Shown piece after piece: positions 4,019 to 53,320 of a stretch of 64,000 nt of DNA. The stretch's first letter is position 1. Every line of letters starts with the position of its first letter. Source of the stretch: an uncultured Dysgonomonas sp. (lineage in GTDB: Bacteria; Bacteroidota; Bacteroidia; Bacteroidales; Dysgonomonadaceae); NCBI RefSeq assembly GCF_900079725.1, contig NZ_LT599032.1:1170871-1234870 (forward strand). Reading direction: 5' to 3'. The notes beneath the pieces are model-generated. The model searched no databases, was not told where the DNA came from, and saw only the letters and a list, made by a program, of their open reading frames with translations. Both the position numbers and the translations under genes were made by a program.

Positions 4019-5146
4019 TCAAATTTTACTGACAGGAATATATATTTCCGTCAGTAATTCACTTTCAGGAACCAGCACAGGGCTATTCAGGAATTTGGAG
4101 AAAGACATATTGTCCCTTAATTCGTATTCACTCTTCGGTATCCAGTACCGGTAAATATCACAATACACTTTATCCATATCCTTATACGTCCCCCGGTAAG
4201 TAAAAACAGCATATAAGCCGCCTTCTATTGTTTGCCGTCCTAACCGCCCATTGGCTTTAAGTGCACTTCCAGCATTTATGCATGTGTATATCCTGCAATT
4301 CTCAGGGCTTGTTATTGTCGAAATATCCCGGCTTAATGATAGATATTCATGGTTGTTATCGGGGATTCCGTTCACACCGACAATACTGATCAGCTTGTCC
4401 CATGCCTTGAGGAATGCGTCTGCCTGCCTATAAGGATTTACCACACGCAGGTATAACACTTCTTTCGACGCCATTTTCCTTATTTCAGGTTCTAAAAAAA
4501 GGTACTCCACAGGGCTATCCATCGACATTGTTAGATCACCGGGTTGTGCACGATAAGCCGAAGGTGTAATTCCATATCTCTTTTTAAATGCTTTTGATAA
4601 TGCCTGAGGACTTTGATAGCCTGTTTGTTCTGCAATATCAGCCAGTGAAAATCGCGTAGTATGTAACTTAAAAGCCGTTTTTTCTAATCGTAAACGCTGT
4701 ACATAATCGCCGGGGCTTTCATTCATTACAGCCCTGAAAATCCGGTGAAAATGAAAACTCGAAAGCCCGGCTATGCTTGCCAGATCAGAAAGATTAATGA
4801 CGGTGGAGAGATTATCATTTATATAGTCTACTGCTCTATTTACCGATTTGTAATATTCCAAGTGTGTAAACTGGTGTGACTGCCATCGCTTTAAACCGGG
4901 CAGTTTGACTGTTGTTTTTAAGTTCACCTCATCCAGAGTAAGAGTGCGTCCATCCAGTTTTTCAGCCTCATCATGATATTGCAAAGAATCCTTGACAAAT
5001 TCATCAAAACTGAAATCGTCAGTATATTTTCCATTCCGGAAGCAAAAACAACAAAAATCTTCATTCAGACTTTTATCTCCATTGGTTCCAAAATGCTCTA
5101 CTGCCGCCATCGGCATGCCACAGCTTTGACATATGTCGTTTTTCAT
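4019..5146 (-). CDS. AraC-family transcriptional regulator with N-terminal zinc ribbon and C-terminal GyrI-like effector domain
   Basis: 375 aa. CxxC...CxxC at the N-terminus (CQSCGMP...CCFCF), an AraC HTH (SSFHFHRIFRAVMNESPGDYVQRLRLEK...SPQALSKAFKKRYGITPSAYR), then a SOUL/GyrI-like tail. Confidence 0.85.
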   Translation of the reverse strand: MKNDICQSCGMPMAAVEHFGTNGDKSLNEDFCCFCFRNGKYTDDFSFDEFVKDSLQYHDEAEKLDGRTLTLDEVNLKTTVKLPGLKRWQSHQFTHLEYYKSVNRAVDYINDNLSTVINLSDLASIAGLSSFHFHRIFRAVMNESPGDYVQRLRLEKTAFKLHTTRFSLADIAEQTGYQSPQALSKAFKKRYGITPSAYRAQPGDLTMSMDSPVEYLFLEPEIRKMASKEVLYLRVVNPYRQADAFLKAWDKLISIVGVNGIPDNNHEYLSLSRDISTITSPENCRIYTCINAGSALKANGRLGRQTIEGGLYAVFTYRGTYKDMDKVYCDIYRYWIPKSEYELRDNMSFSKFLNSPVLVPESELLTEIYIPVSKI

Positions 5147-5690: not shown

Positions 5691-6272
5691 ATGAAAAAAG
5701 TTATAGAAGTTAGCATAGGAGGGATCAACTTCACAATGGAAGACGATGCCTATTACAGACTAAAGGAATACCTGAGACGTTTCGAGGAAACTATTTCCGA
5801 CAAAAAAGAAGCGCGTGAAGTAATGGAAGACGTGGAAGCGCGTGTCGCCGAAATATTTCAGAAAGAAATGAAGTTTTCGAATCAGGTAGTAGATATGAAG
5901 CTCGTACAGGTCGTTATTGACCACCTGGGCGAAGTGGAACCTAAAACCCAAAATGAGAATCAAACCTCATCACAAAGTAGTTACGATCTGGGAGAAGAGT
6001 ACTCCAAAGGTAACAAAAAATTCTACCGGGACATGGATGACAAAATGCTGGCAGGTGTATGTAGCGGAATCGCAACATACACAGGAGTGGACGTCACCAT
6101 CATAAGACTAATATTCGTTGCACTGGCATTTGCCTATGGCAGTGCCATCCTTGCTTACTTCATCCTGTGGATCGTATCGCCAAGGGCCGAAACCATAGCC
6201 CAGAAGCTTGAATTGAGAGGGTATGCCCCCACAGCAGATAATATCAGAAAATTTACATCACAACGCAAATAA
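5691..6272 (+). CDS. PspC-domain membrane protein (short paralog)
   Basis: 193 aa. PspC motif KFYRDMDDKMLAGVCSGIATYTGVDVTIIRLIFV followed by a TM helix. The N-terminal domain is paralogous to that of 6629..8128. Confidence 0.8.
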   Translation: MKKVIEVSIGGINFTMEDDAYYRLKEYLRRFEETISDKKEAREVMEDVEARVAEIFQKEMKFSNQVVDMKLVQVVIDHLGEVEPKTQNENQTSSQSSYDLGEEYSKGNKKFYRDMDDKMLAGVCSGIATYTGVDVTIIRLIFVALAFAYGSAILAYFILWIVSPRAETIAQKLELRGYAPTADNIRKFTSQRK

Positions 6273-38853: not shown

Positions 38854-39684
38854 CTAACCTATTACAAGAGAGGTCATACTCAGCGACCCCGCAATTACTT
38901 TATCATTGAATATCCGGACAGGTTCATCTTTCTCCCTCAAAGCCAACGTATAAAGCAGCGGAATATAATGTTCGGGAGTAGGAATAGCCAGACGGGCAGC
39001 GTCATGCAAACGGGTATAATCTATCAGGGAATGGAAATCACCGTTCAATATCTTATCTTTGAATAAGTCGTTCAGCTCGAAAGCCCAATCATAACCATAT
39101 TCCGTATTGAAATCATCCCCTTCGACGCGTACCATCCTCAGGTTATGTATCATATTTCCACTGCCTATCACCAAAACGCCTTTGCGACGCAGAAAAGCCA
39201 GTTCCCGTCCCAGATCATAATGATATCGCATTCCTTTGAAATGGTCGATACTCATCTGCACTACCGGGATATCCGCCAAAGGATAAATATGTTTCAACAC
39301 GCTCCAGCTACCGTGGTCGAGTCCCCATTCGTAATCTTCTCCGATGGCAACATCGTTTATACGTTCTCTTACTAACTCCGCCAGCTCTTTCGATCCCCGG
39401 GCAGGGTACTGTTGGGCAAACAATTCACGGGGAAAGCCATAGAAATCGTGTATAGTCTTAGGTTCACTCATGGCAGTAACGAAAGTTCCACGTGTTTCCC
39501 AATGAGCTGAAATACAAAGGATAGCCTGCGGTTGCGGAAGGTCTTGCCCCAAGCTCGTCCATGCCTGTACAAACTCATTATCCTCAACGGCATTCATGGG
39601 TGTGCCATGCCCTACAAATACAACCGGCATAAGCGGTGTATCGTGAAACTGCATGGCTTGTTTATGTAAGTCTTTTAGTGTCAT
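38854..39684 (-). CDS. ygiD: 4,5-DOPA dioxygenase extradiol (class III extradiol dioxygenase, YgiD-like)
   Basis: 276 aa with motifs VFVGHGTPMNA, ISAHWET and GSGNMIHNL. Confidence 0.85.
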   Translation of the reverse strand: MTLKDLHKQAMQFHDTPLMPVVFVGHGTPMNAVEDNEFVQAWTSLGQDLPQPQAILCISAHWETRGTFVTAMSEPKTIHDFYGFPRELFAQQYPARGSKELAELVRERINDVAIGEDYEWGLDHGSWSVLKHIYPLADIPVVQMSIDHFKGMRYHYDLGRELAFLRRKGVLVIGSGNMIHNLRMVRVEGDDFNTEYGYDWAFELNDLFKDKILNGDFHSLIDYTRLHDAARLAIPTPEHYIPLLYTLALREKDEPVRIFNDKVIAGSLSMTSLVIG

Positions 39685-39727
39685 AAATCTATGTTATTTA
39701 AGCTAATCAGTGGATGAATTTTAACGC

Positions 39728-40255
39728 TCTATTTTTTCTAACGCGCCTGCTGTCTTGTTTTTCATTTTGCCTTGATGCAAAACGAAACAAAAAATCAAGG
39801 CTGCATCCCCCGGCGACCCAAAGCCGCAGCTTCGGTGGGGCAAAATAATACGGAATCATCTTTAGCCAGATTATCAACAGGGTATAGCAGCTACCGTATT
39901 TTGCCCTACACCTCCGCTTTACGGATTGGGTGCCCCGCCTGCGGGACGAGGCCGGAATCGCGATGCGACGACAGGACAAAGGCTCTCCGGGCTTTAGCCG
40001 CACGTGCGTCAGCAGCGCCGTTAGCTTTAAGTACGGGGCACCCATAGGACGAAAAAGGCGTTAAAAACAAAAACGTGTTTGAACTTATCCGCTGATGCGT
40101 ATTATATACATCCCGGAGCGAGTTTTTTTGTTTAGCCTTTGAGTCCGTTATGGGTCGGACATTGAAGCGGGGCGCTAAAGCATTTTTGGTTCCTTTTGGG
40201 GCTTAGGCCAAAAGGAATGCAAGCAATTTTAATTGCGCGCAGTAGAAAAATAGAA
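39728..40255. ncRNA. candidate large structured RNA or RNA-carrying miniature element (unclassified GC-rich island)
   Basis: About 58% GC by hand count over 39801-40040, against AT-rich flanks. Only mirror-image, non-coding-like ORFs cover it. There are many perfect helices, including an 11-bp long-range pairing (39927-39937 / 40034-40044), a cUUCGg loop at 39830-39835, and a 10-bp hairpin at 40190-40217. Imperfect inverted repeats bound it at 39728-39746 and 40235-40255. Strand is unresolved. The UUCG loop and one G-U weakly favour plus. Confidence 0.4.
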
Positions 40256-40310
40256 CATTTTTATACGACAATAATCTCTTCAACTACTTACTGGCAGAAT
40301 TTATAAAATA

Positions 40311-40338
40311 ACGGCCTTGACACTATAGTCAAAGCCGT
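40311..40338 (-). terminator. terminator after yceI-like gene (minus strand)
   Basis: ACGGCCTTGAC (40311-40321) pairs with GTCAAAGCCGT (40328-40338). The single mismatch becomes a G-U only on the minus strand, and a U-rich run follows on that strand. Confidence 0.6.
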
Positions 40339-40364
40339 ATATAATAAAAATACCGTTTAATGTA

Positions 40365-41021
40365 TTATTGAGCCGCTTTTGCTACAACTGTTATCTGCAA
40401 TTCGATATTATCGTTTACAATATTTTCTTTCAGATTGGCAAACAAAGTTTTTGAACCATATTTTACATTCCATTGAGTACGGTCGATAGTAAACGGAACG
40501 GTAACGGCCTTATACAATTCACCTTCTTTTGTAACTTTTGCACCGAAAGAGATATTCTTTTCCACATCTTTCAGCTTCAGATTTCCGCTAACCGTATAGT
40601 TTACACTGTCGTTTGGCGTTGCCAGAGCCTCTACTTTAGTAATAGTGAAAGTACTTTCAGGATATTTTGCAACATCGAAGAAATCTTCACTCTTCAGGTG
40701 ATTTACCAACATTTCGTTCATCTTAGCTTCAGTAAGATCTTCATCTACAATTGCATTCATATCTATTACGAACGAACCCGAAGCCACTGCCTCTCCATTA
40801 ACAGCAAGGCTACCACTCTTTATACCGATTGTTCCGTGATGAGAACCTCCTACTTTAGATCCTACCCAATGAATAGATGAAGCTGAAGGGTCTACCGTTA
40901 GTTCAACTCCGGTTCCCGATGCTGCTGCCTGAGCGTCTGTACCTTCCACTTTATTTTTAGCAGCGTTGTTGCACGATGCTACGAATATCAATGATGCGAT
41001 TGCCAATAAATATGTTTTCAT
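40365..41021 (-). CDS. YceI-family periplasmic lipid/polyisoprenoid-binding lipoprotein
   Basis: 218 aa with lipobox (VASC). YceI-like motifs SSIHWVGSKVGGSHHGTIGIKSGSL and FTIDRTQW. Confidence 0.85.
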   Translation of the reverse strand: MKTYLLAIASLIFVASCNNAAKNKVEGTDAQAAASGTGVELTVDPSASSIHWVGSKVGGSHHGTIGIKSGSLAVNGEAVASGSFVIDMNAIVDEDLTEAKMNEMLVNHLKSEDFFDVAKYPESTFTITKVEALATPNDSVNYTVSGNLKLKDVEKNISFGAKVTKEGELYKAVTVPFTIDRTQWNVKYGSKTLFANLKENIVNDNIELQITVVAKAAQ

Positions 41022-41071
41022 TTTTAATTTCCTTTTTTAATATTAATATAATTTTTGATTTAAATATGTCG

Positions 41072-41079
41072 CAAAGTTA
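41072..41079 (-). promoter_or_regulatory. candidate -7 box (TAacTTTG on minus strand) for the YceI-like gene
   Basis: Plus-strand CAAAGTTA lies 50 bp upstream of the ATG at 41021. Confidence 0.4.
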
Positions 41080-52094: not shown

Positions 52095-52114
52095 TTTTTT
52101 CCTACCTTAGACGT

Positions 52115-53320
52115 ATGAAACGAGGACACGCCGACTTACCCCTCCACTATGGAACTGTGCCCCCTTGGCTGGCTCAGCGAATGAGCCTTCTGGGCGGAGC
52201 CATTGCCGAAGCCATCGTTATCGAATATGGGCGCCCGGCATTGTTGCAGCGTCTTAGCGACCCGTTCTGGTTTCAGTCATTAGGCTGTGTATTGGGTATG
52301 GACTGGCACTCGTCGGGAATAACCACCTCTGTGATGAATGCTTTGAAAAAGGCAATAAACAAACGTTCTGCCGAGTTGGGCATCTACGTTTGTGGCGGAC
52401 GTGGAAAATCGTCACGGCAAACACCTGCCGAACTTATCGAGATAGCTAATAAAACCGGTTTAGACGGAGATGAGCTGGTTAGAAACAGTAAATTATCGGC
52501 TAAGGTGGATAACACAGCCGTTCAGGATGGCTACCAACTATATCTGCATTCTTTTGTTGTAACCATCGATGGAGAATGGACTGTTATCCAGCAGGGCATG
52601 AATGGGAACAACCGTATGGCACGGCGTTATCACTGGCTTTCGTCGTCACTTGAATCCTTTATGGAAGAGCCTCATACTTCTGTCTGCGGAAAGAATCAGG
52701 GTTTAATACTAAACCTGACAGATAAGCTCGCTGTACCAACAAAAGAGGGGATAATGGAACTGACAAAAGAAACTCCGGATAAACTGATAAATGAGGTTTC
52801 CATCATTTTGCCGAACCATCATGACGTACGATCCGAAGATGTAAATCTGAAACGTCTGGGAGCCGCGCTCATTCTTGCCCACGAAACCAATGTTTCTGAT
52901 ATAGAATCACTCTTGCTGCTCGAAGGTGTGGGACCACGCACATTACAATCGCTTACTCTGGTCAGCGAAGTGATACATGGCACACCTTCACGGTTTTCCG
53001 ACCCGGCACGCTTCTCTTTCGCACACGGAGGGAAAGACGGGCATCCGTTCCCGGTTCCGACCCAGGTATATGATGAGACGATCGAAATATTCGACAAAGC
53101 TATCCATCAGGCAAAACTGGGAGATAAAGACAAATCGGAGGCGCTCAAAAACCTTTCCAAAATATCGCAGGATATGGAGAAAGGATATACCCCGAGCAAT
53201 TACTTTGACGACTTGGTACAACACGAGCGGAATACTTCATACAAATATGGAGGTAAAACCGTATTCGGTGATGCAAGAAAACCGAAGGACGAAGGGACGC
53301 AGTTGAAACTGTGGGACTGA
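52115..53320 (+). CDS. DUF763-family protein
   Basis: 401 aa. The N-terminal block ADLPLHYGTVPPWLAQRM...LSDPFWFQSLGCVLGMDWHSSGITTSV matches my recollection of DUF763. Confidence 0.65.
   Translation: MKRGHADLPLHYGTVPPWLAQRMSLLGGAIAEAIVIEYGRPALLQRLSDPFWFQSLGCVLGMDWHSSGITTSVMNALKKAINKRSAELGIYVCGGRGKSSRQTPAELIEIANKTGLDGDELVRNSKLSAKVDNTAVQDGYQLYLHSFVVTIDGEWTVIQQGMNGNNRMARRYHWLSSSLESFMEEPHTSVCGKNQGLILNLTDKLAVPTKEGIMELTKETPDKLINEVSIILPNHHDVRSEDVNLKRLGAALILAHETNVSDIESLLLLEGVGPRTLQSLTLVSEVIHGTPSRFSDPARFSFAHGGKDGHPFPVPTQVYDETIEIFDKAIHQAKLGDKDKSEALKNLSKISQDMEKGYTPSNYFDDLVQHERNTSYKYGGKTVFGDARKPKDEGTQLKLWD

Follow-up and report, generated by a model that had tools for sequence, protein, structure and literature searches.

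The DNA considered here is a 64,000-nucleotide stretch of contig NZ_LT599032.1 from an uncultured Dysgonomonas sp., referred to below as the window and numbered from its first base. Within it, yceI (40365-41021) and ygiD (38854-39684) are both encoded on the minus strand, and the yceI intrinsic terminator lies between them at 40311-40338 (minus), where a preliminary description of this DNA had placed it; the terminator is intact and identical in D. gadei. [quoted passage not shown] Our analysis favors the second reading. The segment 39700-40297, a 598-bp, non-coding, imperfect palindrome just outside of which the terminator lies, is with a probability of roughly 0.8 one copy of a 540- to 600-bp non-autonomous MITE-type transposable element of Dysgonomonas, and the island, with the same confidence, a selfish repeat and not a conserved RNA gene.

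An insertion at the yceI-ygiD locus

Comparison with related strains, which the preliminary description had proposed, uncovered an empty ygiD-yceI spacer in five Dysgonomonas genomes, namely, D. gadei (L002), D. mossii (L052), Dysgonomonas sp. PF1-14 (L004), a D. hofstadii metagenome-assembled genome (MAG; L005), and L006. In each, the yceI stop codon, the terminator, and the ygiD ATG fall within about 75 nt. Because these five relatives have only this short spacer, the island is an insertion. Dysgonomonas sp. UBA7710 (L003) alone shares it at this site, with 90% identity. The YgiD protein itself is 95 to 96% identical to those of D. gadei and D. termitidis; at the latter locus (L001, 2136-4000) synteny is broken, and a gene for a 563-amino-acid (aa) membrane protein, not yceI, lies upstream of ygiD.

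Alignment of filled and empty sites delimited the insert to 39700-40297. The sequence is ATGTTATT-T[insert]AATTTAT-AAAATAAC at the filled site and ATGTTATT-AATA-AAAATAAC at the empty site of D. gadei, and the four to five extra bases of the filled site are consistent with a 5-bp duplication. The candidate target duplication, which is derived from this comparison and from the alignment of copies, consists of TATTT at 39695-39699 and AATTT at 40298-40302, matching at 4 of 5 bases. Immediately inside are terminal inverted repeats of about 25 nt. The left repeat, AAGCT AATCAGTGGATGAATTTTAAC, occupies 39700-39725 (plus) and was drawn from the consensus of copies, while the right one, at 40269-40297 (minus; reverse complement CTGCC AGTAAGTAGTTGAAGAGATTATTG), was drawn from the copy alignment and from pattern matches in other copies. 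The family consensus at both ends is ATryn AATCAGYAGTTGAGTTTTAAT and is clearest in copies L214, L103, and L212; in the window copy, the right side is degenerate. A 5-bp flanking repeat, AAGTA, is perfect in L214 and L103. The imperfect inverted repeats at 39728-39746 and 40235-40255, which had been proposed as the boundaries of the island, are real but internal: they pair with each other (the left one being on the plus strand) as part of the long palindromic arms, are paired in the minimum-energy folds of both strands, and lie inside the true ends at 39700 and 40297.

Dispersed copies of the element

A search for homologs, also suggested at the outset, collected dispersed copies in Dysgonomonas and in metagenomes, and no further copy of the island was found within the 64-kb window. 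Full-length copies occur at other loci (L103, L211, L212 [two], L214, L215, and L216). Overall, at least 10 further copies are present at unrelated loci, including at least 5 in D. gadei, the yceI-ygiD site of which is empty. On the metagenome contig L103, the whole element lies between unrelated genes, and loci L211 to L219 carry full or partial copies in differing gene contexts. Left flanks differ between copies, and the copy alignment resolves two subfamilies that differ in the segment corresponding to 40050-40130. Copies can be aligned with the island in reverse complement as well, with E values down to 1e-22; therefore, the whole element is an imperfect palindrome.

Two side observations concern the flanks and the left arm. 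L103 (11116-11165 and 11760-11802) and L214 have different neighboring genes but agree over about 50 nt of flank to either side, and this common flank includes a promoter-like box, TACCTTTG; the element may be nested in another repeat at these loci, or it may target promoter-like sequence. In UBA7710 (L003, 3873-3923), an extra GC-rich segment of 51 nt stands just upstream of the module described below (corresponding to window position 39759/39760), and L103 and L214 have a shorter, 30-nt version of it. This segment resembles either a hot spot for indels or a hairpin that the left arm may or may not carry.

Composition, coding potential, and folding

The preliminary estimate of about 58% G+C for 39801-40040 was accurate: the value is 58.3%, the highest of any 240-nt segment in the window (mean, 40.0%; standard deviation, 6.0). 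The second-highest peak, at 52100-52400, is ordinary coding sequence at the start of a 401-aa open reading frame (ORF; 52115-53320) that follows a 305-aa ORF. The island was likewise correctly described as lacking a real ORF. Only short, mirrored ORFs overlap it, none with a Pfam family above threshold, and the mirrored arrangement and the abundance of helices both arise because the element is palindromic. A spurious 112-aa ORF has 13 database relatives. Each sits on a copy of this repeat, and none carries a Pfam domain; D. gadei ATCC BAA-286 contributes several of them, annotated as "hypothetical proteins" and spread over four scaffolds. A 91-aa ORF (39772-40047, plus) gives a sub-threshold Pfam match to PF24623, a phage zinc-binding domain, at 22.8 bits against a cut-off of 24. 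We treat this match as a compositional artifact, and the cysteines are lost in copy L103.

The helices and recurring words listed in the preliminary description are present. Its helices a, c, f, and g were found exactly where it had placed them, helix d is present and as imperfect as described, and the cUUCGg tetraloop stands at 39830-39835. The pairing word of helix e is also present, with its CTCCGGG one base from the reported position, at 39985-39991. TTTAGCC occurs at 39861, 39993, and 40131 as claimed; in reverse complement it reads GGCTAAA, a word from the internal loop of the family's long hairpin (on the minus strand here). GGGGC does recur, at four sites (39837, 40035, 40169, and 40198) and not three. 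Two hairpins make up the GC core on the basis of pairing: hairpin 1 (39835-39909) comprises helix a and its extension, and hairpin 2 (39927-40044) comprises helix c, a perfect 11-bp stem, enclosing helix d.

These helices exist, yet for the GC core taken by itself (39790-40060) the gain in folding over shuffled sequence is slight and not significant, with z scores of -1.8 (plus) and -1.3 (minus). The whole element (39700-40299) reaches z scores of -3.5 (plus) and -4.7 (minus), and 0 of 100 shuffles folded as well. Across nine copies, the GC-core pair 39932/40039 is not maintained, being G-C once, A.C five times, G.T twice, and A-T once. Position 39896 is mismatched in three D. gadei copies, while at 39836 a G.U pair becomes A-U in L003. 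Searched at gathering thresholds, the whole window had no match in Rfam 15, and relaxing the limit to E ≤ 10 for 39400-40600 added nothing meaningful. The preliminary description had likewise been unable to match hallmarks of tmRNA, RNase P, SRP, 6S, cobalamin, TPP, glmS, or group II introns. ARAGORN detected no tRNA or tmRNA.

A hairpin module and long hairpin dispersed through Bacteroidota

A repeat unit dispersed through Bacteroidota makes up the interior of the element, in two copies of opposite orientation. One is a perfect CTTGAT module on the plus strand, the other is a degenerate module plus a long hairpin (H1) on the minus strand, and the two GC-rich hairpins lie between them. In its general form, the module is a 10-bp hairpin with the loop CTTGAT, followed by a run of A and then by ATCAAGGCT, the ATCAAG of which is complementary to the loop. 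The canonical module of the window (39760-39803, plus) has arms at 39760-39770 and 39777-39787, the loop CTTGAT at 39771-39776, and the A-run at 39788-39793; its tail on the same strand consists of ATCAAG (39794-39799) and then GCTG. The degenerate inverted module (40171-40220, minus) has as its hairpin helix g (40190-40199 paired with 40208-40217) with a loop at 40200-40207 and the tail GCGCTAAAGCATTTTTGG. Its reverse complement, TTCCTTTTGG-CCTAAGCC-CCAAAAGGAA-CCAAAAAT.., aligns with the 5' module, TTCATTTTGC-CTTGAT-GCAAAACGAA-ACAAAAAAT.., and the same 3' module is found in L101, about 400 nt from that locus's own module. The H1 apex region (40051-40141, minus) reads GGCTAAAC-AAAAA-AACTCGC[variable hairpin]TTCAAACA-CGTTTTTG-TTTTTAACGCC, with the apex itself at 40076-40124. 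A profile built from 43 foreign units returned exactly two matches in the 64-kb window, at 39760-39806 (plus; E = 7e-11) and at 40141-40051 (minus; E = 1.9e-5).

The module was scanned for with the pattern CTTGATNNAAAAN{5,9}AAAAAAN{0,1}TCAAGGCT, which matched at least 120 metagenome stretches and 7 viral contigs. The unit was found at more than 140 places across Bacteroidota, in Bacteroidia, Flavobacteriia, Cytophagia, Saprospiria, and some of their phages. In 129 distinct copies of the module stem, each position is Watson-Crick paired in 84 to 98% of copies, and positions 1, 2, and 7 to 10 show up to four pair types. Mismatches are A.C in 40 cases and G.T in 12. RNAalifold, applied to a MAFFT alignment, found compensatory changes in 5 of 8 module pairs; it recovered the module hairpin only, the arms of the long hairpin being misaligned in that alignment.

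H1 follows the module in 45 units. Its internal loop carries GCTAAAA on one arm and TTCTTAACGC on the other, it closes on GA-GGCC, and its apex is invariant and non-palindromic, AACTCGC[variable hairpin]CTCAAACAG. In the 33 units measured, the apex lies 74 to 83 nt from the module loop (about 83 nt in the window). Many elements close with an inverted, often degenerate, copy of the module. Canonical H1 hairpins fold at a z score of about -5. An attempt to call the functional strand from folding energy was abandoned: in 41 of 45 units the reverse strand appeared to be the more stable one, by 7 kcal/mol, a difference that disappeared with shuffling controls, and composition-controlled folding of H1 gave z scores of -4.9 and -5.3 for the two strands (p = 0.32). 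Rfam returned no family for 15 canonical loci, and for L157 and L038 only hairpin matches at chance level.

Several loci show other arrangements of the unit. In a Flavobacterium MAG (L038, 3550-3935 and 4840-6260), six modules form mosaic, partly tandem arrays that flank its ygiD homolog, and two kinds of interstitial hairpin unit alternate between the modules, resembling BIME or BOX mosaics. L106 (1-1900) holds a tandem array of about four 440-nt units, each starting with the module and long hairpin and without an inverted partner module; a fifth copy of the unit lies at 6012. In L157 (1596-2990), a 54-aa ORF and the gene for a 162-aa DUF6169 protein (Pfam E = 1.9e-15) stand between two inverted module-plus-long-hairpin units with inverted arms of about 250 nt; this could be the element carrying cargo or the outcome of two separate insertions. 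Viral contigs L078 (an 11-kb contig with two units, at 4514 and 6989) and L083 carry module-plus-long-hairpin units beside structural genes, and phages may carry the unit between hosts. A phage or plasmid origin of the island itself was considered and rejected: in BLAST searches with the island, plasmids matched only an approximately 47-nt piece (39756-39806) corresponding to the module, in Persicobacter and Haliscomenobacter, and phage records gave no match.

Search for a linked mobility protein

When 643 ORFs lying up to about 3 kb from 145 module copies were clustered all against all, no protein family recurred. No transposase, reverse transcriptase, or nuclease was linked to the unit in these neighborhoods, which likewise held no TnpA, TnpB, or IscB genes, and no Y1 transposase motif was detected in 1.45 Mb of module-bearing loci. 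RAYT proteins were searched for with a query that was an approximate composite sequence; it retrieved thousands of real PF01797 proteins from Bacteroidota. Three distinct RAYT loci were examined (L205 to L208, which are one locus in four samples; L209; and L210). All are flanked by hairpins of the form GCGAGTT-loop-AACTCGC, and no CTTGAT module lies beside the RAYT gene at any of the three. In L205 (2330-3200), L209 (2300-3120), and L210 (2380-2500), the flanking hairpins follow the pattern nnCGCGAGTT-loop-AACTCGCGnn with a recurrent G.T wobble. Their 3' arm and the H1 apex have the 7-mer AACTCGC in common. A link between RAYT and the CTTGAT module was nonetheless rejected, as the flanking hairpins at these three loci differ from the module and the 1.45 Mb of module loci lack the Y1 motif.

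Transcriptional context

The statement that ygiD has no TAnnTTTG box ahead of the island was borne out: none is present on either strand across 39062-41071, which covers the 5' part of ygiD, the island, and yceI. The nearest such box on the minus strand is that of the yceI promoter, at 41072-41079; window-wide, the motif is enriched, with 94 matches against 68 expected. In D. gadei, the yceI terminator is about 20 nt from the ygiD ATG. Here, as in D. gadei, ygiD seems to depend on transcription running through the yceI terminator, and as ygiD lacks a promoter box of its own, the minus strand of the element is probably carried passively by yceI read-through.

Discussion

The identification of 39700-40297 as a MITE-type element draws on its length of 598 bp, below the limit of about 1 kb for such elements, its lack of coding sequence, its terminal repeats, its dispersed copies, and the difference in site occupancy between relatives. 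Of the two readings in the preliminary description, the miniature element with MITE-type ends is the one upheld, by the empty site in five relatives, the dispersed copies, the terminal inverted repeats, and the probable target duplication. The features that had suggested an RNA, that is, GC richness, helix density, mirrored ORFs, and recurring words, follow from the palindromic architecture of the repeat. Since terminal repeats occur together with a probable 5-bp duplication, a transposase of the DDE type acting in trans would recognize the terminal repeats and make a staggered 5-bp cut. The element entered the gap of about 20 nt between the yceI terminator and the ygiD start, an insertion shared with UBA7710. 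Read-through from the yceI promoter would then carry its minus strand within a yceI-ygiD transcript, the stability or extension of which the strong hairpins of the element may affect, either attenuating or stabilizing the mRNA. The covarying hairpin and the pairing of the loop with ATCAAG would form in a single-stranded intermediate or in transcripts.

Several observations weigh against an ordinary MITE. An autonomous parent with matching terminal repeats was not found among plasmids, viral contigs, or the 1.45 Mb of module loci, and the window has an imperfect target duplication and copy L212a none. The best-conserved part of the wider family is the internal module, 60 nt from the end, and not the termini, an uncommon pattern in a MITE driven by a transposase. 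Covariation of the module hairpin is clean. Loop and tail also appear to change together: CTTGAC occurs with GTCAAG in three copies, compared to 0.22 expected with permuted tails, and this gives modest support to a loop-tail pairing. In addition, the orientation of the module relative to co-directional neighboring genes is biased, with 28 antisense and 10 sense. Stem covariation, loop-tail compensation, and orientation bias hint at a strand-specific, single-stranded function that plain cut-and-paste transposition leaves unexplained. The conserved unit might be a phylum-wide structured element that acts in single-stranded form, as RNA or as the single-stranded DNA substrate of an uncharacterized enzyme, a proposal that we regard as unlikely. 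As RNA, the unit could be a mobile terminator or stabilizer or a scaffold for a protein encoded in trans; as DNA, it would be served by an enzyme possibly related to the Bacteroidota RAYTs, given the shared AACTCGC. The Dysgonomonas MITE would then be one vehicle of the conserved unit. An RNA role for the unit is, at present, unsupported.

The same evidence enters a more specific alternative, in which the element, or the module with its long hairpin, is a structured non-coding RNA gene that spreads as a mobile cassette and has the RNA as its functional product, for instance, one that guides or scaffolds a protein encoded elsewhere or that acts in cis as a terminator or stabilizer. It would account for the strong stem covariation in 129 copies, the compensatory CTTGAC/GTCAAG changes between loop and tail, the apex (AACTCGC...CTCAAACAG), which is invariant and non-palindromic and keeps a fixed distance to the module, the canonical long hairpins at z of about -5, and the 28-to-10 orientation bias; the reverse-oriented long hairpin is, moreover, followed by UUGAUUUUUU, which reads as terminator-like. 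DNA hairpins of mobile repeats covary too. The alternative is opposed by the absence of a TAnnTTTG box in or beside the island on either strand, of any matching Rfam family, and of a protein gene recurrent beside the unit, as well as by the equal folding of the two strands after composition control (z, -4.9 and -5.3; p = 0.32), the empty orthologous site in five relatives, and the mismatches that core helices tolerate across copies. We consider it improbable, and the undescribed large structured RNA gene of the preliminary description is unsupported on much the same grounds: the island is not conserved at this locus, a TAnnTTTG box is missing, the strands fold about equally once composition is controlled, and the helices contain mismatches. 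That the island is instead a decayed piece of a GC-rich protein-coding gene acquired horizontally was suggested by a G+C content 18 points above that of the genome, by ORFs of 91 to 112 aa on both strands, and by the one sub-threshold match to PF24623. This idea is effectively refuted, and we assign it almost no weight: the mirrored ORFs are a product of the palindromic DNA, 13 of 13 ORF relatives lack a Pfam domain and lie on repeat copies, the putative zinc-finger cysteines are not kept in L103, and the element has terminal repeats and multiple dispersed copies.

A further possibility is a REP/REPIN-like element, that is, two inverted hairpin modules mobilized as single-stranded DNA by a single-copy HUH Y1 transposase, in which case the mover would be a RAYT (TnpA-REP) of the Bacteroidota-specific subclass 2.6 and not a DDE transposase. 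Several features fit such a system, namely, hairpin modules in an inverted pair that folds into one larger hairpin, stems that covary, a high copy number, and the lack of a linked transposase, and hairpins flanking Bacteroidota RAYT genes contain AACTCGC, the invariant 7-mer of the H1 apex. The work of Quentin et al. provides a published lead in this direction. On the other hand, the three distinct RAYT loci are flanked by GCGAGTT-loop-AACTCGC and none by the CTTGAT module, no Y1 motif is present in the 1.45 Mb of module loci, and the RAYT query was an approximate composite, though it retrieved real PF01797 proteins. The inverted repeats at the ends of the Dysgonomonas element are also genuine, its 5-bp duplication is probable, and HUH single-strand transposition, as in IS200/IS605 and REP systems, is not known to produce either feature. 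We therefore think it doubtful that a REPIN-like process moved the element and retain the MITE reading.

Among known repeats, the Dysgonomonas element resembles the Correia elements of Neisseria, ERIC/IRU, and RUP in being small and non-coding, with terminal inverted repeats, intergenic position, and multiple copies. Like them, it is present or absent between close relatives, folds into a long hairpin, and lies beside terminators or start codons, where such repeats can affect transcripts. Those elements measure about 100 to 160 bp and are AT-rich, whereas the Dysgonomonas element is about 600 bp and GC-rich, with no cognate insertion sequence known, and, unlike them, it is best conserved in an internal, phylum-wide hairpin module and not at its termini. 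The MITEs of Porphyromonas gingivalis (BrickBuilt, MITEPgRS/MITE464, and MITE239; PMC4596501) are likewise from Bacteroidales, are a few hundred base pairs long, occur at 10 to 20 copies per genome, and have given rise to spurious "hypothetical protein" calls. They differ in having IS5-type terminal repeats (GAGACCTTTGCA), which are unrelated to the Dysgonomonas repeat (AATCAGYAGTTGA), and in having tandem minisatellites and not the CTTGAT hairpin module.

REP, REPIN, and BIME sequences with RAYT share covarying inverted hairpin pairs, a larger hairpin, mosaic or tandem arrays (as in L038 and L106), the absence of an internal transposase, and wide persistence within a lineage. In contrast to REP sequences, which are palindromes of 20 to 40 nt with a conserved tetranucleotide foot (GTAG/CGTC) on the 5' side, the module hairpin lacks this foot and has its conserved parts in the loop and the 3' tail, the CTTGAT unit is about ten times as long, the RAYT genes examined are flanked by other hairpins, and terminal repeats and probably a target duplication mark the copies in Dysgonomonas. 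IS200/IS605-derived PATEs and the guide RNAs of TnpB and IscB are similar in their subterminal hairpins and structured non-coding interior, and the module loop contains TTGAT, the target pentanucleotide of ISDra2. However, IS200/IS605 elements lack inverted terminal repeats and a duplication and insert 3' of a fixed tetra- or pentanucleotide, whereas the Dysgonomonas element has terminal repeats, a probable duplication, and left flanks that vary from copy to copy; the Rfam IS605-orfB and HEARO families did not match the window or the canonical loci.

Literature searches with sequence words, with Bacteroidetes together with MITE, REPIN, or RAYT, and for Dysgonomonas repeats found no description of the element or of the repeat unit. 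Taken as a MITE family, it is absent from Rfam and undescribed in the literature found. Automatic detection has yielded 81,380 MITEs in Bacteroidota genomes, which a 2024 preprint lists but does not characterize, and the sequence of the element may already be in such an automatic catalogue.

For the locus, these results remove a false lead, in that the island is most likely a selfish repeat and not a conserved riboregulator or RNA gene, and the "hypothetical proteins" annotated over the D. gadei copies are artifacts. A hairpin-rich insert of 598 bp now separates ygiD from the yceI transcription unit, which is probably the only source of a promoter for ygiD. Beyond Dysgonomonas, the analysis exposes a repeat unit with a cleanly covarying hairpin across classes of Bacteroidota, one that Rfam does not contain. 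Identifying the enzyme or process that recognizes this unit would add a family to the few bacterial repeats for which a mechanism is understood.

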